NCBI GenBank assembly: GCA_016186955.1
Contig: JACPKP010000007.1
Coordinates: 1,962 to 65,961, forward strand
Direction of reading: 5' to 3'
Length of the DNA stretch: 64,000 nucleotides
DNA from: Candidatus Daviesbacteria bacterium
Lineage (GTDB): Bacteria > Patescibacteriota > Microgenomatia > Daviesbacterales > UBA10151
Shown: in pieces, positions 14,067 through 51,179 of the stretch
Layout: the number at the start of each line of letters is the position of its first letter
Numbering within the stretch: position 1 is the stretch's first letter
Position numbers and translations under genes: made by a program
The notes under the pieces: generated by a model
Told to the model about the DNA's origin: nothing
What the model saw: only the letters and a program-made list of their open reading frames with translations
The model's database searches: none

Positions 14067-14150
14067 TACATTAATTCAATCATTTCTAAATAAGTAGGCG
14101 TACCAGAGGTGTATGCTTATTTTTTTGTGTTGCATAGGTATTATTTTTTT

Positions 14151-17100
14151 ATGCAAGCCGCAAAAGCCAGCAATATTAATAATAGGCTGTATTGGGGGAA
14201 AAGAAGCTCTATAGCGGAGCTTAAAAAACTTGATCTTACCAGGCTCCAAAAACAATCCTACGAACTTTTTTTAAACTCCGGCATCGGACAGCTTTTAAAT
14301 GAAATATCACCTGTTGCAGATTTCACCGGAAAAAACTGGAGACTTGAATTCGGCGAATACTTTTTCGGTAAAAGCAGGTTTTCACCTGAGCAGTGCATGA
14401 TTAAAGGGGTTTCTTTTGATGCCCCGCTCCGGGTTAAAGTGGTCCTGACCAACCTCCAGACAAATGAAACATACAAACAGGAGGCTTTTTTGGGTGATAT
14501 CCCCCAGATGACGGAAAAAGGCACCTTTATTATTAATGGTGTTGAAAGGGTGATAGTCAACCAGATTGTCCGTTCCCCAGGGGTTTTTTTCTCAGCCATA
14601 GAAGATCCTATCACAGGCAGGAAGCTGTTTGGCGCTGAGCTGCGCCCTTCCCATGGTTCCTGGCTGGAATTTTCAATCTCCCGCTCTGATGTGTTAACAG
14701 TCAAAATCGACCGGAGAAGAAAATTTGCAGCAACCACTCTGCTTAGGGCGCTTGGGTTTACTGACGGCCAGATCAGGGATAGGTTTTCATCAGCAGACCA
14801 AAACAGCGACCACCGCTACATTGAATCAACCCTGGCCAAAGACATGACTAAAGACGAGAATGAAGCTCTGCTGGAAATCTTCCGCAAGATGAGGCCCGGC
14901 GACCCGGTAGTTTTAGAAACTGCACGGACACTTTTGGAAAATATGTTTTTTAATGCCCGCCGGTATAACCTGACCAGGGTGGGCAGGTTTAAAATCAATA
15001 AAAGGTTAGGTTTAAATATCCCCAATACACCGGAAAACTGGACCCTGACTAAAGAAGATATAGTTGAAACCCTAATATACTTGATCGGGTTAGCAAACGG
15101 TGCGGGGAAAGTTGACGATATTGACCATTTATCCAACAGGAGGGTGAGGATGGTTGGGGAGCTGGTGGCCCAGAATGCTTTTTGGGTCGGCCTGCAAAGG
15201 TTGGAGAGGGTAATCAGGGAAAGGATGAGCCTGCTTTCGGCTGACCAGGAGATTACTGCTTCGGGTCTGGTCAACGCCAGGCCGGTTATTGCCGCCATTA
15301 ATGAATTTTTCCGCTCTTCGCAATTGTCTCAGATACTTGACCAGATCAACCCTTTATCGGAAGTGGACCATTTAAGAAGGCTTTCCGTAACAGGCACAGG
15401 GGGTATCTCCAGGGATAGGGCCAGTTTTTCCATCCGTGATATTAACCATTCCCAATACGGCAGGATTGACCCTGTCCGTTCCCCTGAAGGGCAAAATATC
15501 GGGCTGGTTACTTATCTTGCGCTCTATGCCAGGATTAATGAGTATGGTTTTTTAGAGACACCATACAGGAAGGTGGTTTTACAGGGGAACAAGCCGAAAA
15601 TCACTGATGAAATAGTTTATTTAACAGCAGACGATGAGGAGAACTTGTATATTACCGAAGCAACTATTGAAATCAGCAATGACGGATATATTACCCAAAA
15701 AAGAGTGCCTGTGCGTTTCGGCGGTAACTTTTTTGAAACAGACAACAAAATGGTTAATTTAATTGATGTATCTCCGCAGCAGATAGTCGGGACTTCGGCA
15801 TCGCTGATCCCCTTTTTGGCCCATGATGATGCCAACAGGGCCTTGATGGGTACCCATATGCAGTGCCAGGCAGTGCCCCTGCTTTTACCGCAATCCCCCA
15901 TGGTTGGGACAGGTATGGAGGAGATTATAGCCGATAATATGGCCAGGGTTGTCAGGGCAGGTTTTGATGGGACGATAACTTATGTTGATGGGGAAAAACT
16001 GGTGCTTGAGGGAAAAGGTAAAAAAGAGGAGCTTAAAATTGAGAAGTTTGTCAATTCCCCGGCTATGACCTGTTACTCCCAACGCCCGGCTGTTTTTTTG
16101 GGCCAAAAGGTCAAAACAGGTGACCTGCTTATTGAGGGTGTATCAACTCAGGGAGGAGAGTTGGCTTTGGGACAAAATTTAATGATAGCATATATGAGCT
16201 ATGACGGTTTAGAATACGAAGACGCGATCATCATCTCTGATCGGCTTGTCAAAGAAGACCTTTTAACCAGTATCCATATTGAAGAATATTCCACAGATGT
16301 GGTTGAGACGAAACTCGGGCCGGATGAGGTCACAAGCGATATACCAAATGTTTCGGAAGATAACCTGGCCAACCTTGATGCCGGAGGTGTTGTCAGGATT
16401 GGCGCAGAGGTGGGCCCGGGGGATATATTAGTCGGTAAAGTCCAGCCTAAAGGTGAAACTGAGCTGACTGCAGAGGAGAGGTTGCTGCGGGCAATATTCG
16501 GGGAAAAAGCCAAAGAAGTCAGGGATACATCTTTGAGGATGCCCCATGGTGAAAAAGGCATTGTTATCGGGATACAGATCTTATCCAGGGAGGCAGGGGA
16601 TGATTTGGGGGCAGGGGTGCTGCAGAGGATTAAAGTTAAAGTTGCCCAGTATAGGAAAGTTTCCGCAGGTGACAAATTAGCAGGCAGGCATGGCAATAAA
16701 GGGGTTATTTCTAAAGTAGTGCCTGAGTATGATATGCCGCGTCTTGAAGACGGCACCCCGGTTGATATTATTATCCGCCCGGCAGCTATTTTAAACAGGA
16801 TGAATTTGGGGCAGCTTTTGGAAGCGCATTTTGGTTTTGCTGCCAAAAAACTGGGTTATAAAATCGCTGCGCCGGTATTTGAAAAAATTCCCGAGGAGAT
16901 ACTCACAGAAGAGCTCAAAAAAGCAAAACTTCCTGTTTCAGGCAAAAGCCGCCTGATTGACGGAAGAACAGGGGATTACTTCTACCAAGACGTGACTGTG
17001 GGGTATGCATATTTCCTGAAATTGATACATATGGTTGAGGATAAAACCCACGCACGCTCTACCGGTCCTTATTCCCTGGTTACACAACAGCCTTTAGGCG

Positions 17101-17540
17101 GGAAAGCGCAAATGGGAGGCCAAAGGTTGGGGGAGATGGAGGTTTGGGCGCTTGAAGCATACGGCGCTGCAAATATATTACAGGAAATGTTGACTATCAA
17201 ATCTGATGATGTAGTCGGAAGGGCCAAAGCATTTGAGGCGATAGTCAAAGGGACAGAGATCCCGCAGGCTTTGATACCGGAGTCATTTAAGGTTTTGGGC
17301 AAAGAATTGCAGAGCCTGGCTGTATCGGTAGAGCCTCAGGGTGTGCAGATTGTCAGCGCTCCAGCTGTTGTGGGTTTGGATGATTCAGCTGCCGCAAGTG
17401 ATGATACCAAGCTAAAGGAAAAGAAAGAGTTGGAAGAGTTCAAAGAGGCGCTTGAAGTCACTGATGTTGGGGATGTTGCTGAATTGGAGAGTGAATCAAG
17501 CCCGATGGAGATTGTTGATGTTCCCAAAACATATGAATGA
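14151..17540 (+). CDS. rpoB: DNA-directed RNA polymerase subunit beta
   Basis: Full-length RpoB hallmarks ([25 protein letters not shown] etc.). The likely start is the ATG at 14151 rather than the ORF-track 14109. Confidence 0.95.
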
Positions 17541-22525: not shown

Positions 22526-23383
22526 ATGGGTCCTGATGAAGAGACTGTGGAACCAGGGTTAGAAACAGAGGAATTGGCCCAAAAGATAAACCCCTTTTGG
22601 GAACAGCCCTATCAGTTGGCAAGAGCAGTTGCCAGAAGATGGAGAAAACCCGAGGCGAAAACAGAGATAGAACCTACTATTGCGTCTACTCACCAGGAAG
22701 ATATCCTTTCAACTAGAGATAAAAAAAACAAGCGGGAATTAGGAGCAGATAGCGCTAATGTTGTACTATTTGTTGAGCTTGAAGATGATGGCTCAGCAAT
22801 ATACAAACCCGTAAGTGGAGAGCAGCCTTACTTAAGACATGGTATTGAAGCAGGGACTTATTATCAAAGAGAACGGGCAGCATACCTAGTAGATAGGTTT
22901 TTAGGTCTCGGTTTAGTTCCACCAACCGTAATACGTGAATTAGATGGTGAGATTGGGAGTTTGCAGCAGTTTATTCCAGAAACAACGGGCAGTTGGGGTG
23001 TGGATCTTTCTCAACTACAAGAAGATTTATATCAACTTTGGGTTTTTGATTATATTATTTGGAATACAGATAGACATTCAGGTAATTTACTTTTTCAGGG
23101 TAATAAGCTTTTCGCAATCGATCATGGTCTGTCTTTTGGGAGTGAGTGTCGTATGTTCATGAGGCATTTTTATGACATTGCCGCTCCCAAACAACTGGTT
23201 GGTCTGCTGGAGCAATTTTTAAAAGATGACAAAAGCAAAAAAATTCTACAAGAACTACTTGAGGAGTTGCTCAGTGAAGATGAGGTAAAGGCTTGTGTGA
23301 GAAGGATTGAACATATCGGTTCTAAATTAATCAAAAATGGTATGATCAAACTTAATGAAGATAGCATTTTCAATCCTGAATAA
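22526..23383 (+). CDS. PI3K/PI4K-like atypical kinase-fold protein
   Basis: Catalytic-loop-like IWNTDRHSGNLLF (DRHxxN) and IDHGLSFG (DFG-equivalent). Upstream AIYKP beta-strand lysine and a conserved Glu in QRERAAYLVDRF. Confidence 0.45.
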   Translation: MGPDEETVEPGLETEELAQKINPFWEQPYQLARAVARRWRKPEAKTEIEPTIASTHQEDILSTRDKKNKRELGADSANVVLFVELEDDGSAIYKPVSGEQPYLRHGIEAGTYYQRERAAYLVDRFLGLGLVPPTVIRELDGEIGSLQQFIPETTGSWGVDLSQLQEDLYQLWVFDYIIWNTDRHSGNLLFQGNKLFAIDHGLSFGSECRMFMRHFYDIAAPKQLVGLLEQFLKDDKSKKILQELLEELLSEDEVKACVRRIEHIGSKLIKNGMIKLNEDSIFNPE

Positions 23384-24449: not shown

Positions 24450-24523
24450 TCCTAGGCACAAAAGGCGTCCCCTTTTGAGGCTAAATTAATTTATACCCCC
24501 TTGTTTTAACTGTAACTATTTCA
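24431..24523. repeat. X-repeat copy 2 plus Y-repeat copy 2 (native 3' end of the regulator gene)
   Basis: AATCCCACCCCCGGGTTAGTCCTAGG followed by the 67-nt Y sequence. Confidence 0.7.
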
Positions 24524-25785
24524 TAAGAGCTGTTTTGTTGCTTCAGCTTACTCCGGACTCTTGCTACCAGCCTGTCTATTGCCCAATCGGAGACTCCCAA
24601 TTCCTCTTCTTCAGGCCAGACTGCTTCAATTATGGCTTCCCGCTCACATATCTGGTTTAAGTTATTTTGTAGACAAGTAAACAACAGATGTTCTTTTTTA
24701 CTGAGTTCCAACGGTGGCATTTCCAGCGGTTTGGCCCCATTTGTCTGTCTTGATTTGATGAAATTTTCAAAGATCGGGCTAAAAATCCGGGTTTTACCTT
24801 TTTCAGTAGCAACCAGGCCGGTATCCCAAAGGTATTTACTTGAAAGTTGCCCATCTTTTGAAATTTTTTCTTTGGAGACAATCTGAATCAGTGTATCTTG
24901 CTCTGTTTCATTTAAACTGTCCCAGAGTTCTTCGGATTGTAAAGCTATCCTTTCATCCTCTATCAAGGCCGGAAAAAGTTCAAAATTTTTGTTTAAAATT
25001 TTGATTTTTTCTGAGAGAGTAATCAAGGCGAGCAGCAGGTATTGGATATATCCGCCGGAAAACGCAAATAACTCTTCCTTAAATTTTTTGGGAAGGTGCA
25101 AGTTATACTTTCTGGTGTTAACTTTATAGATAGTTTCCAGATCTTTGGGCTCTGCTGTTTTAACATACATCTGGTATACGATTAGGGCGGGAGAGGCTTG
25201 GCTGAATGCCTTGGGTGCAAGCTGGTCTAAACTCCTAAAACTTGTCAAAACATAAGTTAACTGGTGGTTGGTTGCATCATACAGGCTTTCAAGGTTGGCA
25301 AAAAGCTCAGGCGTGACAGCATCTTTAATACGGTCAAAATGGATTAAAAACATTGTCGGGATAAAGCCTGCCTGTGTGATTTTTATCAAGCTTAACCTGA
25401 CACAATCAAATAATAAAAACAGGTCTTTTGATTGAATTGAATCCAAAAAAAGGTTCTCGACATATTTTTTAATTTTAGGTTCCAAATTTAAGCGCTCGCA
25501 GTTATCAACAATCCTTTTTAAAGTTAACATCCAAAATGGGAAAACCTCCCTTTCTACCAAATCATTTAGATCCACATGGATAAATAAATGTTTTTTTCTA
25601 TTTGGAATGTGTTTGTCTATCACCTTTTTATGGCTTAAGAAAAACCTTAAGAAATTGCTGATGCCAACCCGGCGCATACCGATCATAATGATTGTCTGGC
25701 GGTTTTTGAGATAATATCCTAAATTTTGGGAGATCTCTTTCCTGAAGGTTTTTGGGTAATACGATTCCAGGACCGTGTTTACCAT
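24481..25785 (-). CDS. transcriptional regulator: degenerate AAA/STAND-like NTPase domain fused to C-terminal OmpR/PhoB-type winged helix
   Basis: N-terminal IIMIGMRRVGISNFL resembles a Walker A with Lys replaced by Ile. Walker B-like LFIHVDLND. The C-terminus EAVWPEEE...IDRLVARVRSKL...IVTVKTRGYKLI is trans_reg_C-like. Confidence 0.6.
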   Translation of the reverse strand: MVNTVLESYYPKTFRKEISQNLGYYLKNRQTIIMIGMRRVGISNFLRFFLSHKKVIDKHIPNRKKHLFIHVDLNDLVEREVFPFWMLTLKRIVDNCERLNLEPKIKKYVENLFLDSIQSKDLFLLFDCVRLSLIKITQAGFIPTMFLIHFDRIKDAVTPELFANLESLYDATNHQLTYVLTSFRSLDQLAPKAFSQASPALIVYQMYVKTAEPKDLETIYKVNTRKYNLHLPKKFKEELFAFSGGYIQYLLLALITLSEKIKILNKNFELFPALIEDERIALQSEELWDSLNETEQDTLIQIVSKEKISKDGQLSSKYLWDTGLVATEKGKTRIFSPIFENFIKSRQTNGAKPLEMPPLELSKKEHLLFTCLQNNLNQICEREAIIEAVWPEEEELGVSDWAIDRLVARVRSKLKQQNSSYEIVTVKTRGYKLI

Positions 25786-26237: not shown

Positions 26238-26368
26238 CGTGGATGAAGTTTGCTTCGCCGACAGGCGAATCTCGCCGAAGGCGAGCAGGAAGAGAAACTA
26301 CGGGCGAAGCGAAGCGGAGTCCGTAGAGGCTCATTCTAAAGCACCCCTCTTCAGGGGGCTATTTTTTG
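26238..26368 (+). ncRNA. structured leader/possible small RNA: nested GC stems ending in an intrinsic-terminator-like hairpin plus T6
   Basis: GCTTCGCC...GGCGAAGC long-range pairing, CTCGCC-GAA-GGCGAG and CTACGG...CCGTAG stems, then CCCCTCTTCAGGGGG followed by TTTTTT (26343-26368). Confidence 0.3.
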
Positions 26369-26379
26369 AAATCACACCT

Positions 26380-26628
26380 ATGGATCAGTTAAAAAAACAA
26401 AAGCTTGAAATGTGGCAAAAAAAACTTGAAGGGCTTCAAAAAGAGTTCAAGGAGATTATGGTGCGCAAAGGGGAAGCTGCAGCTGACGGTGACCTTTCAG
26501 AAAATGCAGCATACAAACAGGCTGTGGAGGAGGCTGATATTTGCCTGGTCAGGATCAGTGAAATTAAAAAAATTATAGCTAATTTGGAAGGACCCGCCTC
26601 CGCCAAGGCTCCGGCGGGCAAGGGATAA
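26380..26628 (+). CDS. stand-alone GreA/GreB N-terminal coiled-coil domain protein
   Basis: GDLSENAAYKQA signature of the Gre-factor N-terminal domain, with two Asp/Glu near the coiled-coil tip. No FKBP-like C-domain; 82 aa. Confidence 0.55.
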   Translation: MDQLKKQKLEMWQKKLEGLQKEFKEIMVRKGEAAADGDLSENAAYKQAVEEADICLVRISEIKKIIANLEGPASAKAPAGKG

Positions 26629-32991: not shown

Positions 32992-34176
32992 ATGGCAGAT
33001 TCTAAAAAGTACGAAAGAACTAAACCGCACGTAAATGTCGGAACCATGGGTCATGTTGACCATGGTAAAACTACCCTGACTGCAGCGATTACCAAAGTTT
33101 TGGCAGGTAAAGGTTTGGCAGAGGTTAGAACTGTAGACCAAATTGATGCAGCCCCGGAGGAAAAAGCCCGCGGAATCACCATCAATATTTCCCATCAGGA
33201 ATATGAGACCGAAAAACGCCACTATGCCCACATCGATATGCCGGGTCATGCTGACTATATCAAAAACATGATTACCGGAGCAGCGCAGACAGACGGAGCT
33301 ATTCTGGTAGTTTCTGCCCCGGATGGCCCAATGCCTCAAACCAGGGAACATCTTTTGCTAGCCCGTCAGGTGGGGGTTCCGGCGATTGTGGTCTACCTTA
33401 ATAAAACAGATATGGTTGATGACCCTGAGCTTTTAGATTTAGTGGAAGAAGAGGTCAAAGACTTGCTTAAAAAATATGAATATGACCCCAATTCACCAAT
33501 AATCAGAGGCAGCGCTAAAAAAGCTTTGGAAGGCGATCCTGAAGCAGTTAAATCTATTGAAGCTTTAATGGAAGCTGTTGATACATGGATCCCAACCCCT
33601 GTTAGGGATAAAGATAAGCCGTTTTTGATGGCTGTTGAAGATGTATTTTCCATTAAAGGGCGTGGTACAGTGGCTACAGGCAGGATTGAAAGAGGGGTTG
33701 TCAAAATTAATGAGGAAATTGAAATTGTGGGTATCAGGCCTACCAAAAAGAGCGTTGTGACAGGCATTGAGATGTTCCATAAAATGCTCGACCAGGGTGA
33801 AGCAGGGGATAATGCCGGGATACTATTGCGGGGTGTTGAGAAAGATGATATTGAAAGAGGGCAGGTTTTGGCAAAACCCGGTTCAATCACCCCTCACAGT
33901 GAATTTGAGGCTGAAATTTATGTTTTGAGTAAGGAAGAGGGTGGAAGGCATACCCCGTTTTTTAAAGGCTACAGGCCGCAATTTTACATCAGGACTACTG
34001 ATGTGACAGGTGAGGTGCAGCTTCCTGAGGGGGTTGAGATGGCTATGCCTGGGGACACAGTTAAAATTGTAGGAAAATTAATCACCCCGGTTGCTATGGA
34101 GGATGGTTTGAGGTTTGCAGTCAGGGAAGGCGGGAAAACAGTAGGGGCAGGGGTCATTACCAAGATAATTGCTTAA
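32992..34176 (+). CDS. tuf: elongation factor Tu
   Basis: [22 protein letters not shown]; full length. Confidence 0.95.
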
Positions 34177-34234
34177 AATTTAGTCTGTCCCAAGGGGCCG
34201 AAAGGCTCCTTTTTATTATTAACAGAGAGGAAAG

Positions 34235-34501
34235 ATGCCTGAAATTGAAATTACCGAAGACAAGAGAAAAGATTTACGCAGTTGGGCTGATGGAGCTGGG
34301 AAGCGTTTAAAGAACATTGATCCAAACGGAGGAAGCTTAATATGGGACATTGCCGGCGAGCCGTTTGTCATGCATACAAGGCTTCTGGCGCTGTATACTA
34401 GCGGCCGCTCTTTTGACTGTTGGGCAGAGAGGTATTTTGTGCTTTGCAGCGATAAACATGCTGAGACCCTTGAGCAAGCAGGTATTATTGAGTTAGAGTA
34501 G
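34235..34501 (+). CDS. hypothetical protein inserted between tuf and rpsJ
   Basis: ORF with an SD-like AGAGAGGAAAG upstream; no known motif. Confidence 0.35.
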   Translation: MPEIEITEDKRKDLRSWADGAGKRLKNIDPNGGSLIWDIAGEPFVMHTRLLALYTSGRSFDCWAERYFVLCSDKHAETLEQAGIIELE

Positions 34502-34562
34502 TTGACCTATAATTGGTTTTTAGGGGGTTTGTGGTACAATAGCACATTGAAAGGGGAATAAT

Positions 34563-34871
34563 ATGGCAAAAGGCAGAATTAGAGTCCGTTTAAAATCTTA
34601 TGACCATCGGGTTTTAGATGCTACTTGTGAGCAGCTGCTGGATACTGCTTTGCGTACCGGCGCCAAAATTGTCGGTCCCATTCCCCTTCCCACAAAACGC
34701 TCCAGGATTACCATTCCCCGTTCTCCTTTTAAACACAAAGATTCCCAGGAAGCTTTTGAAATAAAAACCCACAAAAGAGTAGTAGATATCGTTGAACCCA
34801 CTGATAAAACCATAGATTCACTAATGCATTTGGAACTTCCAGCTGGTGTGGATATAGAAGTAAAGATGTGA
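34563..34871 (+). CDS. rpsJ: 30S ribosomal protein S10
   Basis: [14 protein letters not shown]...IVGPIPLPT. Confidence 0.9.
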
Positions 34872-34883
34872 TATTTTAAACAA

Positions 34884-35189
34884 ATGGTAGAGACAGAATA
34901 TCGCGACCCTATAGATACAGAATATAACAGGTATTTAGACAGTCCTTCTAAGAAGCTTTGGGATGATGTTGATATAGAGGTAAAAAAACTTTTATATTTT
35001 GCCGAAATGACCTCAGGTATGACATCCTTGGAAAGAACGGTTTATCTGTTGAGGTTTGAAGTTAGAAATATTATCAATAAAAGATACTCACGAAGAGAAG
35101 TGGGAGAGTTAATAGAAAAATCCCCCAGGACTGTACAAAGATTGGAAAAGAGTGCCATGGCCAAAATTGCATCCGGATTTGGCGCCTGA
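34884..35189 (+). CDS. stand-alone sigma-70 region-4-like HTH protein
   Basis: LERTVYLLRFEV...YSRREVGELIEKSPRTVQRLEKSAMAKI closely fits the sigma-70 region 4 pattern. Confidence 0.5.
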   Translation: MVETEYRDPIDTEYNRYLDSPSKKLWDDVDIEVKKLLYFAEMTSGMTSLERTVYLLRFEVRNIINKRYSRREVGELIEKSPRTVQRLEKSAMAKIASGFGA

Positions 35190-35526
35190 TTCTTCCATTC
35201 TTTATCCCAAAATAGTATACGATCGTACAACGTTTTGTCAAATGATAGCCCGGTGTTGCTTTTGTGCGCAAGCCTGTGTTAGAATTGTATAAGTGTTTAT
35301 GCCTAGAGTTTGTTAAAAAATAAACTTTAAGTTTTCAGTAGATCGCGCGTCTGAGCAGAAACAGATATGATGCAGCACACATAGATTGTCCGGTGGCGGG
35401 TAAAACCGTTATTTTTGACGTGTATGATGAGCCAATGATCTGTCCGGAGTGCCACAAACTGTTAGAGCCCCGGATTATTACTGAAGGGGAATTTAAATCG
35501 TTTGGAAAAGATAAAGAAAGGATAGT

Positions 35527-36324
35527 ATGATCCAGACATTACTGGGCACTAAAAAATTTATGACTTCAACTTATGATTCCCGCGGCAGGCGGGTGGGTGC
35601 AACAGTGGTTGAAATGAACCCGAATATGGTCACGCAAATTAAAGATAAGGAAGGGAAAGACGGATACGATGCTGTGCAATTGGGTTATGGAACTAAAAAG
35701 AGCGTAAAAAAACCCCAGATTGGTCATGCAAAAAAAGCCGGAGTTGAGGGTAAGATCAGGTGGATGCGTGAAGTTAGGGCTAGCGAGACTGTAAAACCTG
35801 GCGACCAGATCAGTTTGGGCCAGGTTTTTTCTGTTGGTGATGCAGTTAAAATAACAGGGGTAAGCAAGGGTAAAGGGTTTCAGGGTGGAGTCAGAAGGCA
35901 TGGATTCCATGGAGGGCCAAAAACCCATGGCCAATCAGACCGCCACCGGGCGCCAGGTTCCATCGGGGCCGGTACAACTCCGGGCCGGGTTTACAAGGGT
36001 AAAAGAATGGCAGGGCATATGGGAGTGGAGAGGGTGAGTTATAAAGGTTTGGAGGTTGTCAAAGTGGATAAACAAAACAACCTGTTGACTATCAAAGGCG
36101 GTGTGCCTGGTCCGGCAGGAGGATTTGTAATAGTTGAAAAACAAGGACGGATAAAAGGTTATACGCCACCACCTGAGGAAAAACCTGAAGAGGAAGAATT
36201 AGAGTCAAGTGACAACACCTCGGAGGTGAAGTCAGAAGAGCCAAAAGTTGAAGCAACAGAAGAGGTTGAATCTACTGAAAGTTCCGATGAGGTAAAGGAG
36301 GAAACAGGAAATGGCAGTAATTAA
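35527..36324 (+). CDS. rplC: 50S ribosomal protein L3 with acidic C-terminal tail
   Basis: L3 core (GVSKGKGFQGGVRRHGF); about 50 aa of Glu/Ser-rich extension. Confidence 0.9.
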   Translation: MIQTLLGTKKFMTSTYDSRGRRVGATVVEMNPNMVTQIKDKEGKDGYDAVQLGYGTKKSVKKPQIGHAKKAGVEGKIRWMREVRASETVKPGDQISLGQVFSVGDAVKITGVSKGKGFQGGVRRHGFHGGPKTHGQSDRHRAPGSIGAGTTPGRVYKGKRMAGHMGVERVSYKGLEVVKVDKQNNLLTIKGGVPGPAGGFVIVEKQGRIKGYTPPPEEKPEEEELESSDNTSEVKSEEPKVEATEEVESTESSDEVKEETGNGSN

Positions 36325-37180
36325 GTCAAAAGTCAAAAGCCCGTCTGCCGGACGGGCAGGTCAAAAGTCAAAAGTATCAAGAAAAGATTCTGTCGCCCCG
36401 AGTAACTCGGGGATCCAGAATGACAAAAAACCAAAAAAGACTAAAAAAGTTGCAGGAGTAAATAAGATTGCCACGTCCTCCGAAAAGGTTAAAAAACCTA
36501 TAGTTAAAACTAAGACAACATCAAATTTGTCAATTCCTGTTTATTCTCTGGCAGGCAGCAAGACCGCAGCAAGTTTGGCATTGCCTAAAGAAATTTTTGG
36601 CGCCAAAGTAAACAAAGCCTTGCTTGCCCAGGCGATGAGGGTTTACCTTAATAATCAGAAAAGCCATTGGTCAAATACCAAAACCCGTGGTGAAGTAAAA
36701 GGGTCAACCAGGAAAATTTTTAAACAAAAAGGCACCGGCAGGGCAAGACATGGGGCAATCAGGGCCCCAATTTTTGTGGGCGGGGGGATTGCTTTGGGGC
36801 CAAAAAACCGGAAGGTAGTTTTGGATCTGCCCGCAAAAATGAAAAATGCGGCGCTGGTTTCAGCCTTAGCACAAAAAGCAGATGAGAAGCAGGTTTTAGG
36901 GATCAGCGGCTTGGATAAAGCAAGCGGAAAAACCAAAGAGATGATAGGCTTAGTCACAAGAGTCCAGAGTCAAGAGTCCAGTAAAAAAAGTATTTTGATT
37001 GTGGTGGGGGAGAAGATAGAAAATGCTGCTAGGGCTGTGAGAAATATTACAGGGGTAGATTTACTGCAATTTGACCAGATTAATGCTTATGAAGTAATTA
37101 AACACCAAAGCCTGGTTTTAACAAAGGAAGCTGTTGAAAAATTGCAGGGAAGACTATTGGGTAAAAAGGAGGCTAAATAA
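36311..37180 (+). CDS. rplD: 50S ribosomal protein L4 with ~80-aa Lys-rich N-terminal extension
   Basis: L4 core from about IPVYSLAG. The N-terminal extension contains the palindromic element (36324-36374) in-frame. Confidence 0.9.
   Translation: MAVIKSKVKSPSAGRAGQKSKVSRKDSVAPSNSGIQNDKKPKKTKKVAGVNKIATSSEKVKKPIVKTKTTSNLSIPVYSLAGSKTAASLALPKEIFGAKVNKALLAQAMRVYLNNQKSHWSNTKTRGEVKGSTRKIFKQKGTGRARHGAIRAPIFVGGGIALGPKNRKVVLDLPAKMKNAALVSALAQKADEKQVLGISGLDKASGKTKEMIGLVTRVQSQESSKKSILIVVGEKIENAARAVRNITGVDLLQFDQINAYEVIKHQSLVLTKEAVEKLQGRLLGKKEAK
36324..36374. repeat. GTCAAAA(x2)-GCCCGTCTGCCGGACGGGCAGG-GTCAAAA(x2) palindromic element, in-frame in rplD
   Basis: Encodes KSKVKSPSAGRAGQKSKV; family members at 37599, 38199, 47643, 44466 and 49419. 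Confidence 0.75.
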
Positions 37181-37182
37181 AA

Positions 37183-37692
37183 ATGACAGCTGTTATATTA
37201 AAACCGTTGGTTACGGAAAAATCAATGTCGCTTGTCAAATCAGGAATGTTTACATTCCTGGTGGATAAAAACGCCACCAAAAGTCAGATTGGGAAAGCTG
37301 TTTCCGGGAGATTTGCAGTGGATGTTTTAAGTGTCAGTACAGTGAATATGAAGGGTAAAACCAAACTGCAAAAGAGCAGAAAAGGGTATTTTCAGAAACC
37401 ATCGTTTAAAAAAGCAATAGTCCAGCTTAAAAAAGGGCAAAAAATTGCTTTGTTTGAATCAGCAGAGAAAGAAGAAGTAGAAGTGAGGACAGCAGAAGGT
37501 GAAGTAGTTGGCAAAACCACAGAAAAAAAGAGTTTATTGGGGAGGACAAAGATAAAGATCAGCAAGCTGTCTCCTGTGGAGATTGAACAAAATACAGCAG
37601 TCAAAAGCCCGCCTGCCGGACGGGCAGGTCAAAAGGCAAAAGTTAAAAGTACAAGTAAAAAATTAAAAGTAAACAAGAAAGGAGCTAAGTAA
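37183..37692 (+). CDS. rplW: 50S ribosomal protein L23 with C-terminal extension
   Basis: L23 core; the C-terminal 70 aa are Lys-rich and contain the palindromic element. Confidence 0.85.
   Translation: MTAVILKPLVTEKSMSLVKSGMFTFLVDKNATKSQIGKAVSGRFAVDVLSVSTVNMKGKTKLQKSRKGYFQKPSFKKAIVQLKKGQKIALFESAEKEEVEVRTAEGEVVGKTTEKKSLLGRTKIKISKLSPVEIEQNTAVKSPPAGRAGQKAKVKSTSKKLKVNKKGAK
37599..37645. repeat. palindromic element copy in the rplW 3' extension (GCCCGCCTGCCGGACGGGCAGG flanked by GTCAAAAG)
   Basis: Encodes VKSPPAGRAGQKAKVKS. Confidence 0.7.
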
Positions 37693-44507: not shown

Positions 44508-45020
44508 ATGGATCCAAGAAATAGGTTTAACAATCAAAGAAGGGGTTATAACAGGCCACCGCAAGAGCCCTCTGAATTTTTTGAAAAAGTAGTCCAGGTC
44601 AATAGGGTATCAAAAAAGACAAAGGGAGGAGATAAACGTTCGTTGTCTGTTTTGGTGGTCGTTGGGGATAAGAAAGGCAGGGTGGGTGTGGGCTTGGGCA
44701 AAGCGGCGGATGTCCAGTCAGCTGTCAGGAAAGCTACAGCCTATGCTAAAAAACATCTTTTCGCAGTCCCTTTAAAAAACAATCGGACAATTCCCCACAG
44801 CATATTTGTAAAACTGGGCGCTGCAAAGGTAATGATGAAGCCTGCATCGGAGGGGATAGGGGTGATTGCAGGGGGGGCAGTCAGGGTTGTGATGGAGGCG
44901 GCAGGCATCAAAGATATAATTTCAAAAGTATTGGGCACCAGTAACCAGGCATCTAATGTCTATGCAAGTTTGGAGGCGTTGAAGCAGCTTAAGCCTTTTG
45001 TAAAGAGGGGGGATAAATGA
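44508..45020 (+). CDS. rpsE: 30S ribosomal protein S5
   Basis: S5 dsRBD and C-domain. Followed directly by rplO with no L30 gene between them. Confidence 0.9.
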   Translation: MDPRNRFNNQRRGYNRPPQEPSEFFEKVVQVNRVSKKTKGGDKRSLSVLVVVGDKKGRVGVGLGKAADVQSAVRKATAYAKKHLFAVPLKNNRTIPHSIFVKLGAAKVMMKPASEGIGVIAGGAVRVVMEAAGIKDIISKVLGTSNQASNVYASLEALKQLKPFVKRGDK

Positions 45021-45472
45021 AATTACATAAATTACCAAAACTGAAAGCCAGGCCTAAAAAACGCCTCGGGAGGGGTTTGGGTTCAGGTAAAGGAAAAACC
45101 GGCGGGAGAGGACAAAAAGGCCAGAAAGCACGCGGAAAGATTCCTGCAGCCAATGTCGGCGGAGGCCTGATTTTATATAAAAAACTGCCCTTCCGGAGGG
45201 GGTTAAGCCGGAAAGGCGGTAACCCGCCCCGTTTGCCAAAACCTATATTAATTAGTCTTTCCAGCTTAAATCAGGTTAAAGCAAAAACACATATTAATAT
45301 AGATACTTTGATTGAAAATGGTTTGATTAAGGCAAAAGATGCTAAAATTAGGGGAGTTAAAATATTAGCCAACGGTAAATTACAGATACCGCTTGTAGTT
45401 GAGCTGCCTGTAAGCAAAAAAGCCAAGGAGTTAATTGAAAAGGCCGGAGGTAATATTGGAATTATAGGTTAA
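45017..45472 (+). CDS. rplO: 50S ribosomal protein L15
   Basis: Gly/Arg-rich L15 N-terminal region. Confidence 0.85.
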   Translation: MKLHKLPKLKARPKKRLGRGLGSGKGKTGGRGQKGQKARGKIPAANVGGGLILYKKLPFRRGLSRKGGNPPRLPKPILISLSSLNQVKAKTHINIDTLIENGLIKAKDAKIRGVKILANGKLQIPLVVELPVSKKAKELIEKAGGNIGIIG

Positions 45473-49458: not shown

Positions 49459-50061
49459 ATGTCTCGCTATACAGGACCAAAACGAAGATTATCAAAAAGA
49501 GAAGGGGTGGCGCTATTTGCTAAAGATGCTAAAGCGCTGGAAAGAAAAGGTGCAGTCCCTCCCGGGATGAGGGGTACAAAAGTCAGGCCCAGATTTTCAG
49601 AATACAGTTTTCAGCTTAGGGAAAAGCAAAAAACCAAAAGGATTTTTGGTTTAAATGAGAGGCAGTTCAGGAATACTTTTAATGAGGCTTCGAAATCTAA
49701 AGGTGCGACAGGCAACAGGTTGCTTGAACTTTTAGAAAGAAGGTTGGATAATGTAGTTTATAGGTTGGGGTTTGTAAAATCCAGGGCTGAAGCAAGGCAA
49801 ATAGTTACGCATGGGCACATTACTGTTGACGGCAAAAAGGTAAGTATTCCGTCATTTAAGGTGAAAACAAACTCAGTAGTTGCAATTTCACCTAAATTTG
49901 TGGATAATACACAAGTACAAAAAAGCCTAGAGGAAAATACACCGGTTCCTGGATGGCTTTCAAGAAAGGCAACGGTAGGCAAGATTTTACGGGTTCCGGA
50001 ACGGCAAGAGATGGAAAGTATAGTAAATGAGCAGCTGATAGTAGAGTACTATAGTAGGTAA
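49459..50061 (+). CDS. rpsD: 30S ribosomal protein S4
   Basis: MSRYTGPKRRLSKREG. Confidence 0.9.
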   Translation: MSRYTGPKRRLSKREGVALFAKDAKALERKGAVPPGMRGTKVRPRFSEYSFQLREKQKTKRIFGLNERQFRNTFNEASKSKGATGNRLLELLERRLDNVVYRLGFVKSRAEARQIVTHGHITVDGKKVSIPSFKVKTNSVVAISPKFVDNTQVQKSLEENTPVPGWLSRKATVGKILRVPERQEMESIVNEQLIVEYYSR

Positions 50062-50067
50062 CATGAT

Positions 50068-50268
50068 ATGAGTTGTGAAAACTTAGATTTAAAAAGATTA
50101 ACAGGTGAAGAGTTATTTCATTTGATGGATCATCATCAGGATGGAATATGGTTGGCAACTGAAGAAATGCTGCAACACTGTAAGTCAAGTGGTGACATTA
50201 TGCGTGAGCTAGAAGAAAGAAATTTATTTGCAAAATATTTGGATCAAAGAGTTCAAAAGTTAATATGA
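50068..50268 (+). CDS. small hypothetical protein inserted between rpsD and rpoA
   Basis: 66-aa ORF whose stop overlaps the rpoA start (ATGA). Confidence 0.3.
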   Translation: MSCENLDLKRLTGEELFHLMDHHQDGIWLATEEMLQHCKSSGDIMRELEERNLFAKYLDQRVQKLI

Positions 50269-51179
50269 TTAAATTTAAAATAAAAACTGAAAATGAAAAA
50301 GAAAATTATGCCAAAGTGGTAATCGAACCGCTTGAGCAGGGCTACGGGCATACGCTGGGTAATAGTTTAAGGCGCTGTATGCTTAATTCCCTGCCCGGGG
50401 CTGCCATCACTTCTGTCAAAATTGCAGGGGTATCCCACCAGTTTTCTACAATCCCCGGAGTAGTAGAAGATGTAATTGAAATGATCCTAAACCTCAAAAA
50501 AGTCAGGGTTAAAGTGTTTGGTGAAAAATCTATCCGGTTGTCTTTGCAAAAAAGCGGAAAAGGCGAGGTTAGGGCTCGGGATATTGATACTTTAGGCCAA
50601 GGTGAAATTGTCAATGGCGACCAGCATATTGCCACCATAACAGACCCCAAGGTGAAACTTAATATGGAGATGACTTGTGAACTGGGAACGGGATATGTAC
50701 CTGCAGACGAGAGGAAGCTCAATGAAATTGGAGTTATCCCGACTGATGCTATTTATACCCCGGTCTTTTCGGTAAACTATACTGTGGATCAGACACGTGT
50801 CGGCAGGCGCACGGATTTTGACAGCCTGGTTTTAGAGGTGACGACCGATGGTACGATTGAACCGCAAGCAGCGGTTGAAAAAGCTGCGCGGATATTGGCC
50901 GGTTATTTTAAACAGGTTTATGAGCCGGAAGAGGAAGTTATAGCAGAAGTGCAAACCCCAAGTTTTGTATCGGATGATCTGCTCAAATCTTCTGTTGAAG
51001 AGTTGGATCTGCCGGTCAGGATAACCAATGCATTGAAGGCTATTGAGATTGATACAATAGGCAAACTTTTGACCATGCCGGCCCAACAACTTATGAAGGC
51101 AAAAAACCTTGGTGCAAAATCCCTGACACTGATTTCAGAAAAGCTTGCAGAGAGGGGGCTGTCTTTAGGTGAGGCATAA
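50265..51179 (+). CDS. rpoA: DNA-directed RNA polymerase subunit alpha
   Basis: N-terminal domain motifs (GYGHTLGNSLRR) and C-terminal domain. Confidence 0.9.
   Translation: MIKFKIKTENEKENYAKVVIEPLEQGYGHTLGNSLRRCMLNSLPGAAITSVKIAGVSHQFSTIPGVVEDVIEMILNLKKVRVKVFGEKSIRLSLQKSGKGEVRARDIDTLGQGEIVNGDQHIATITDPKVKLNMEMTCELGTGYVPADERKLNEIGVIPTDAIYTPVFSVNYTVDQTRVGRRTDFDSLVLEVTTDGTIEPQAAVEKAARILAGYFKQVYEPEEEVIAEVQTPSFVSDDLLKSSVEELDLPVRITNALKAIEIDTIGKLLTMPAQQLMKAKNLGAKSLTLISEKLAERGLSLGEA

Follow-up and report, generated by a model that had tools for sequence, protein, structure and literature searches.

What can the C-terminal end of a sigma factor do when it is encoded as a small protein of its own, directly behind a ribosomal protein gene? 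The question is raised by ORF101, a stand-alone sigma region-4 protein encoded at 34884..35189 on the forward strand of a 64,000-nucleotide (nt) stretch of DNA (hereafter the window) from a Candidatus Daviesbacteria genome, a member of the Microgenomates within the candidate phyla radiation (CPR). CPR bacteria have tiny genomes with few recognisable regulators, and a conserved region-4-only protein always found behind rpsJ, the gene for ribosomal protein S10 (NusE), would be a compact modulator of RNA polymerase or of a few promoters. A preliminary description of the window had placed a 101-amino-acid (aa) protein between rpsJ (34563..34871, +; Pfam Ribosomal_S10, E 2e-35) and rplC, which encodes L3 and opens the downstream unit (35527..36324, +; Pfam Ribosomal_L3 and tblastn synteny). 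It had also noted a sigma-70 region-4 helix-turn-helix (HTH) in the C-terminal half of this protein and the absence of region 2. All three points are borne out by profile searches, an AlphaFold2 model, Foldseek comparison, synteny, ratios of nonsynonymous to synonymous substitution (omega), and codon usage, as set out below.

Profile searches favour sigma region 4 (sigma4), weakly when ORF101 is searched alone and solidly when its relatives are included. By itself, ORF101 matches Pfam Sigma70_r4 (PF04545) with an E-value of 0.008 and 16.1 bits, below the gathering cut-off of 24.1 bits, and the NCBIfam model sigma70-ECF over residues 45-96 (E 1e-4). Its homologues P0006, P0007, and P0010 exceed the Sigma70_r4 gathering score with 39.6, 35.4, and 32.4 bits, respectively. 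The best PDB matches of a profile built from the family are the primary sigma factors SigA/RpoD (E 8e-12), aligned over regions 4.1-4.2; for some chains, such as cyanobacterial SigA, the alignment reaches the acidic end of the 3.2 linker (3.2-4.1). Sigma70_r4 membership appears, then, to be supported through the family and not through the single sequence. All sigma matches of ORF101 lie within residues 20-98 and align to the C-terminal end of the sigma models, and no Sigma70_r2 match was found in Pfam or NCBIfam even at E <=1. Of the two domains sought as marks of a functional sigma factor, sigma4 was detected and region 2 was not. ORF101 is the C-terminal module only of a primary-type (group 1-like) sigma factor, made up of regions 4.1 and 4.2 (the HTH) together with the last part of the 3.2 linker, and on its own it cannot be a sigma factor.

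The AlphaFold2 model of ORF101 has a mean predicted local distance difference test (pLDDT) score of 74, rising above 90 over the HTH. Its helices (residues 31-42, 48-59, 70-76, and 81-96) reproduce the four-helix sigma4 topology, with two 4.1 helices followed by the 4.2 HTH. Almost all of the top 50 Foldseek matches are sigma region 4, the best being 1ku7_A, 1ku3, 4g6d_A, and 3n97 with root-mean-square deviations of 1.4-2.3 Å (2.1 Å over 60 columns for 1ku7_A; target-normalised template modelling score of 0.80 for 1ku3). The N-terminal half (residues 1-45) is acidic, with a net charge of -5, while the C-terminal half that carries the sigma4.1/4.2 domain is basic, with a net charge of +6. A LuxR/GerE-like regulator, an option raised in the preliminary description, was rejected. 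P0006 and P0007 match GerE with 15.3 and 13.6 bits, respectively (E 0.015-0.05; threshold 23.5), against a far stronger Sigma70_r4 match (4e-10), and ORF101 itself has no match to GerE (PF00196) in Pfam.

Homology to primary sigma region 4 (SigA/RpoD; PDB 1KU3/1KU7, 7CKQ_F, and 8H3V_G) is thus seen both in the profiles and in the shared four-helix fold, and P0006 even keeps the group-1 sigma ending ...KLR(Y/H)P and the LRxGL..G...T..E(I/V)G pattern. Unlike primary sigma factors, however, members of the ORF101 family lack regions 1.2-3 and the tail past the 4.2 helix and total only 101-126 aa. ORF101 further differs from them in its changed -35-reading residues, its novel acidic N-terminal extension, and its location beside rpsJ.

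Relatives of ORF101 were reached only via synteny and a profile. A word-indexed search with the single ORF101 or ORF88 sequence (ORF88 lies upstream of rpsJ; see below) returned the query alone. When ORF101 was scanned with HMMER against all 1.84 billion representatives, two proteins emerged: P0004, of 60 aa and 48% identical to residues 42-101, and P0003 (652 aa, E 2e-9), which was rejected as a homologue because it gave only a spurious repeat match to residues 12-29. We therefore turned to 80 genomic loci fetched around S10 homologues (numbered with the prefix L), and built a profile from the syntenic ORFs. The genomes of four other Daviesbacteria species (L006, L007, L010, and L016) carry ORFs of 101-126 aa with the same C-terminal motif directly 3' of rpsJ, and the profile of these syntenic sigma4 ORFs recovered four more database proteins. 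All family members found are located between rpsJ and rplC (L006, L007, L010, L016, and L081-L086), directly behind rpsJ and ahead of the promoter and leader that rplC has of its own. Intact or near-intact homologues are found there on at least nine other contigs, and intact ORFs of 101-126 aa occupy the site in at least five divergent lineages. The family is small and patchy and has so far been found in Daviesbacteria only.

The closest homologue of ORF101 is that of L081 (140-447), in which the full-length protein is recoverable across a 1-nt frameshift. Between the two genes, synonymous sites are saturated, with a proportion of differences of 0.71 against 0.28 at nonsynonymous sites, giving an omega of about 0.16. 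The flanking genes of the same pair give 0.11 (rplC 5' end) and 0.02 (rpsJ 3' end). Omega does not differ between the first 41 codons and the remaining 60, so purifying selection has acted on the whole 101-aa frame and not on the HTH alone. ORF101 is a genuine gene. Codon usage is best in its own frame, but at the low edge of the reference genes of the window. Evolution is fast: sigma4 subgroups share 20-30% identity, against 77-91% for S10. In the window, rpsJ and ORF101 are in frame with one TGA between them. Expression of an S10-sigma4 fusion by stop-codon read-through was considered and rejected because only about 4/9 family loci are in frame, as expected by chance; L081 has two stops.

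Stand-alone region-4 HTH proteins are an architecture already known, and NCBI names P0006 a "sigma factor-like helix-turn-helix DNA-binding protein". What is new here is a distinct, primary-sigma-derived family, restricted to Daviesbacteria, strictly syntenic with rpsJ, and carrying an acidic N-terminal extension of its own. A literature search found no paper linking Daviesbacteria with "sigma factor".

We tentatively propose that ORF101 acts as a small transcription regulator of the sigma4 HTH type, its DNA specificity differing from that for the housekeeping -35 element; judged from sequence, this reading may quite possibly be right, while stopping short of probable. The gene most likely arose from a sigma gene by a partial duplication that copied its 3' end, later lodging at the junction of rpsJ and rplC. 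It would most likely be transcribed together with rpsJ from the rpsJ promoter, and because its start lies 12 nt past the rpsJ stop and is without a Shine-Dalgarno sequence, translation by re-initiation or by coupling with rpsJ is proposed. Contact with DNA would be made by the basic recognition helix of region 4.2 (residues 81-96), and the acidic N-terminal part may auto-inhibit the domain or dock onto a partner. The residues R584, E585, R588, and Q589 of E. coli sigma70, which contact the -35 bases, correspond to P81, R82, Q85, and R86 of ORF101, and R562 and F563 are retained as R57 and F58. Because the -35-reading residues are altered, the specificity of ORF101 is expected to differ from that for the housekeeping -35 element.

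The nearest functional analogy for such a regulator is arguably that of the RinA/ArpU-type phage late activators, the C-terminal half of which has limited similarity to sigma region 4 (PMC3152322). Like ORF101, they are small, are not sigma factors, and have a C-terminal half resembling sigma4; they are believed to bind DNA at specific promoters. Matches of P0007 to PHROG activators are weak (phrog_248, 5.5e-4; phrog_36, 1.3e-4), and P0006 matches phage sigma factors (3e-12). In contrast to the phage activators, the ORF101 family is chromosomal and set among ribosomal genes, and searches of IMG/VR with ORF101 and P0006 gave no viral relatives; a phage origin of ORF101 was rejected on this ground.

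Several observations weigh against a DNA-binding regulator. The recognition helix is poorly conserved, with only R86 and A91 invariant across the family, and promoters look alike whether or not a locus carries the sigma4 gene. The target of an isolated sigma4 domain might be RNA polymerase instead of DNA. The gene is present in only 5/19 species-level Daviesbacteria loci and absent from the other 14, and it is dispensable in this clade. The L081 copy is frameshifted, and the copies in L085 (123-443) and L086 (133-453), which come from independent assemblies, share a mid-domain nonsense codon (TCA, Ser, to TGA); the disrupted copies of these three loci are either pseudogenes or assembly errors. 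The absence of a Shine-Dalgarno sequence from the window copy also counts here, the L010/L016 subgroup having AGGAG. So do the Foldseek E-values for ORF101, which are weak (0.06 or worse) because the sigma4 domain is small. A narrower role tied to the adjacent rplC promoter or leader was rejected, as promoters and leaders look the same with and without the gene.

Were ORF101 to act on the polymerase itself, it would be a sigma mimic that competes for the beta-flap: the free sigma4 domain would bind the beta-flap tip helix with its acidic N-terminal linker in the RNA exit channel, so that housekeeping region 4 is blocked or displaced. Initiation at -35-dependent promoters would then be damped, extended -10 promoters favoured, or the elongating polymerase acted on. 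We consider this unlikely, though a serious contender. It would explain why the complete four-helix module (4.1 and 4.2) is kept and not the HTH alone, and why some SigA profile alignments reach the acidic 3.2-4.1 linker, which is sensible only inside RNA polymerase. A competitor of this kind would also suit the extended -10 TGn motifs found in every promoter seen at the locus, the lack of conservation among the -35-reading residues, and the position of ORF101 beside rpsJ (NusE) in a cluster with rpoA and rpoB/C. Yet the C-terminal tail of primary sigma factors past the 4.2 helix is absent, divergence to 20-30% identity is odd for a surface that fits the highly conserved flap tip, and most relatives dispense with the gene. 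It is similarly doubtful, and perhaps slightly more so, that the solo sigma4 proteins of Daviesbacteria are trans-acting sigma mimics, acting on the beta-flap or soaking up sigma4-targeting factors and so retuning promoter usage, for instance between -35-dependent and extended -10 promoters, in step with the synthesis of ribosomal proteins and NusE. If the sigma-mimic reading were true, ORF101 would represent a cellular, chromosomal 'half-sigma' regulator; to our knowledge, such regulators have so far been confined to phage devices and synthetic fragments. The ORF101 family would offer a natural test of the cellular role of an isolated sigma4 domain. For a small, dispensable, and functionally uncharacterised family, however, the immediate impact is modest.

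ORF101 could also be a decaying relic, what is left of the 3' part of a sigma gene that was duplicated, functionless here and open by chance or recently freed from selection. The patchy distribution would suit decay, as would the two disruptions (the L081 frameshift and the nonsense codon of L085/L086), the missing Shine-Dalgarno sequence of the window copy, its codon-usage score, which lies at the lower limit of those of real genes, and its single-sequence score under the Pfam threshold. We nevertheless judge a relic improbable, given saturated synonymous sites and an omega of about 0.16 across the full length, intact ORFs at the same site in divergent lineages, and a confident model fold.

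On the model of PhyR's sigma-like domain, a solo sigma4 protein might instead serve as a decoy that titrates a host or phage region-4 binder, such as an AsiA-, ORF67-, or Rsd-like anti-sigma factor, and thereby protects transcription. PhyR (PDB 2LFW, a Foldseek match), an anti-anti-sigma factor that works by sigma mimicry, is comparable in that its domain is sigma-derived and no longer serves as a sigma factor, and ORF101 could likewise act by mimicry. PhyR differs in joining sigma2 plus sigma4 to a receiver domain and in having NepR as its known partner, features absent from ORF101. Fast evolution, patchiness, and repeated loss are traits of conflict genes, and the Foldseek neighbours of ORF101 include complexes of sigma4 with G1 ORF67 and with WhiB proteins, as well as PhyR-NepR. 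A decoy is very improbable all the same: the case is purely circumstantial, no linked partner gene is present, no phage relatives of ORF101 or P0006 were found in IMG/VR, and the best PHROG match is simply to phage sigma factors.

That ORF101 supplies the sigma4 half of a split sigma factor, with sigma2 on a separate small protein as in SigO-RsoA of B. subtilis, is scarcely credible: separate sigma2 and sigma4 polypeptides do exist (PMC7826278), and the window and L010 each carry both an ORF88-type gene and the sigma4 gene, but ORF88 has no Sigma70_r2 signal and models as a mixed alpha/beta protein and not as a helical sigma2 fold, L009 has only the ORF88 homologue while L006, L007, and L016 have only the sigma4 gene, and no region-2 match was found in a search limited to the nearby ORFs (ORF88, ORF45, ORF66, and other unknowns). 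SigO-RsoA resembles ORF101 in having its sigma4 function on a polypeptide apart from sigma2 (PMC7826278) and differs in that no linked sigma2 partner gene accompanies ORF101 among the nearby ORFs searched. It is, moreover, grouped with the extracytoplasmic function (ECF)-like family (PMC7826278), whereas the sigma4 domain of ORF101 resembles that of a primary sigma factor.

The order of genes in the window is tuf, ORF88, rpsJ, ORF101, a 337-nt spacer, and rplC, with rpsD, ORF66, and rpoA farther 3'. The preliminary description regarded the small genes as inserted inside the S10 operon. The position of ORF101 between rpsJ and rplC stands, but the interior of an operon does not: an undivided S10 operon would have short spacers and no promoter or terminator between rpsJ and rplC, and neither expectation is borne out. 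Nearly all Microgenomates loci have an rpsJ-rplC spacer of 150 to >3000 nt, whereas those of Dehalococcoidia and Alcanivorax returned by the same search have one of 14-90 nt. In Daviesbacteria these spacers contain, in order, a promoter-like element (cTTGCwwTT...TGTTAnAAT), a leader beginning TTTCAGTAGATCGCGCGTC, and an intrinsic terminator. Because the conserved promoter-like element and leader separate rpsJ from rplC in Daviesbacteria, the rpsJ|rplC junction is, as far as sequence comparison can tell, a regulatory boundary and insertion hot spot, and does not lie within a tight operon. In Microgenomates the "S10 operon" would accordingly be split at this point by a promoter and a terminator-containing leader, and because of that split small foreign genes would accumulate there.

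The inserts behind rpsJ vary by genome: besides sigma4 ORFs and larger cassettes, they include a metalloprotease-like protein and a retropepsin-like ORF. As spacer cargo (spacers of 150 to >3400 nt in L001-L068) we observed an M10-like metalloprotease in L008, the retropepsin-like ORF in L002, and an 866-aa protein with a peptide deformylase in L049. The tuf|rpsJ junction is a lesser insertion hot spot, its inserts in front of rpsJ being ORF88 homologues or, in L017, a four-helix-bundle ORF.

Promoter-like elements stand on both sides of ORF101. Upstream of rpsJ, at 34532..34562 (+), lies a putative promoter with an extended -10 box (TGgTACAAT), followed by a conserved 5' untranslated region (AGCACATTGAAAGGGGAATAA). 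The -10 box and 5' untranslated region (GCACATTGAAAGGGGAATAA) are conserved in all Daviesbacteria loci, even where the gap between tuf and rpsJ is only 36-40 nt. Upstream of rplC, at 35256..35285 (+), TTGCTT is separated by an 18-nt spacer from TAGAAT, which follows TGT (extended -10). This putative promoter fits the conserved element of Daviesbacteria loci both with and without the sigma4 gene.

The leader behind the rplC promoter is a candidate for an undescribed ribosomal-protein leader or attenuator, and arguably the more testable by-product of this work. It is seen upstream of rplC in L001-L016, L032, and L081-L086 (for example at L016:4751-4836 and L010:2682-2766), and its RNA would be 85-140 nt long, with a closing helix UCAGUA..UCGC / GCGA..UACUGA and an invariant core GCGUC...GAUACGGCGAUU. 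The terminator (GAGTGAG...CTCACTC and a U run) ends 10-35 nt 5' of the rplC ATG. Covariation backs the closing and terminator helices: across 17 sequences, 94% of cells are paired and eight two-sided pair changes occur, and none of 500 shuffles scored as high. Terminator-like hairpins just 5' of rplC are common in CPR loci and absent from non-CPR loci. Rfam returned nothing for 34100-35600 or for the leaders of relatives, save a chance snoRNA match (E 0.44). The S10-operon leader in E. coli is an L4-responsive attenuator (PMC3616713). It resembles the candidate in being a structured leader with an intrinsic terminator, directly 5' of an operon encoding L3, L4, and others. Unlike it, the Microgenomates candidate precedes rplC and not rpsJ, shares no sequence or Rfam similarity with it, and in the window lacks the terminator.

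The window copy of the leader is atypical. The promoter and the first ~20 nt are kept, including the conserved 5' start at 35332..35351 (+; TTTTCAGTAGATCGCGCGTC), whereas the conserved core and the terminator are gone and a normal Shine-Dalgarno sequence is found instead. Within this remodelled leader lies ORF45 (35393..35530, +), a doubtful gene of 45 aa with a GTG start, whose TGA stop overlaps the rplC ATG (ATGA). It contains CPEC and gives only sub-threshold zinc-ribbon matches. Its frame scores well in codon usage, yet over only 45 codons, and no homologues were found in the 80 loci.

ORF88 (34235..34501, +), the 88-aa acidic protein that the preliminary description had correctly located between tuf and rpsJ, is preceded by the Shine-Dalgarno sequence GAGAGGAAAG and belongs to a three-member syntenic family. 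Its homologues, likewise between tuf and rpsJ, are P0013 in L010 (39% identity, 18 contigs) and P0015 in L009 (30%). The family has no matches in Pfam, NCBIfam, or PHROG. The AlphaFold2 model (pLDDT 80) shows a beta-alpha-beta4-alpha topology with no meaningful fold match in the PDB, and codon usage is best in its own frame. ORF88 is a real lineage-specific small protein with no recognisable fold. As a sigma2 partner of ORF101 it was rejected for lack of a region-2 signal, for its mixed alpha/beta model, and for its presence independent of the sigma4 gene. The small ORFs were to be doubted if no relative conserved them; ORF101 and ORF88 are both kept at the same position in relatives, so this objection falls for the two of them.

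The upstream anchor gene tuf (EF-Tu; 32992..34176, +; Pfam GTP_EFTU with D2 and D3, E 3e-61) is separated from ORF88 by a terminator-like hairpin (AAGGGGCC-GAAA-GGCTCCTT) with a T-rich tail, found in a terminator scan at 34192..34221 (+; hairpin 34192-34211). Equivalent hairpins follow tuf in L002-L007 and L032. That insertion into ribosomal protein operons guarantees high constitutive expression, as had been suggested for the small genes, does not hold up: ORF88 sits behind this hairpin, ORF101 lacks a Shine-Dalgarno sequence, and the rpsJ|rplC junction appears to be a regulatory boundary.

The third small gene, ORF66 (50068..50268, +), does lie between rpsD (49459-50061) and rpoA (50265-51179) as first described, but its status as a gene finds no backing in homologues or codon usage. 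It exactly fills a 203-nt insertion of low GC content (0.32), its ATG standing 6 nt past the rpsD stop and its end overlapping rpoA by ATGA. In about 25 metagenomic relatives, with S4 60-76% identical, the rpsD-rpoA gap is 4-50 nt and no ORF66 homologue is found. Profile and PHROG searches gave no family match, and in codon usage the annotated frame does not score best. In favour of a gene is that the ORF fits the insertion exactly, and a rough estimate puts the chance of one frame staying open over 66 codons at such base composition at about 1-4%. As it stands, ORF66 is an unsupported orphan. NCBI annotates ORF101, ORF88, and ORF66 as hypothetical proteins (HYW46_04175, HYW46_04165, and HYW46_04315, respectively).

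Accessory genes are scattered through the whole ribosomal super-cluster of this genome, which also holds rpoB (14109-17540). Among their products are a HipA/PI3K-like kinase, an OmpR-type winged-helix protein, a protein with the GreA N-terminal domain only, an NYN domain protein, and a MaoC dehydratase. The HipA/PI3K-PI4K-like kinase ORF (22526-23383) and, on the opposite strand, the 434-aa protein with a C-terminal OmpR-type winged helix (24481-25785) lie between rpsG and fusA in the str cluster. Just 5' of fusA, a 129-aa ORF (26239-26628, +) carries only the GreA/GreB N-terminal coiled coil (Pfam GreA_GreB_N, E 3e-11) and lacks the C-terminal domain, making it a second "partial" transcription factor of the same gene cluster. 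The rpmD gene (L30) is absent between rpsE and rplO, which overlap (44508-45472), and L3, L4, and L23 (265, 289, and 169 aa; 35527-37692) have long charged or low-complexity extensions; the missing rpmD and the extended L3, L4, and L23 are features typical of CPR bacteria.

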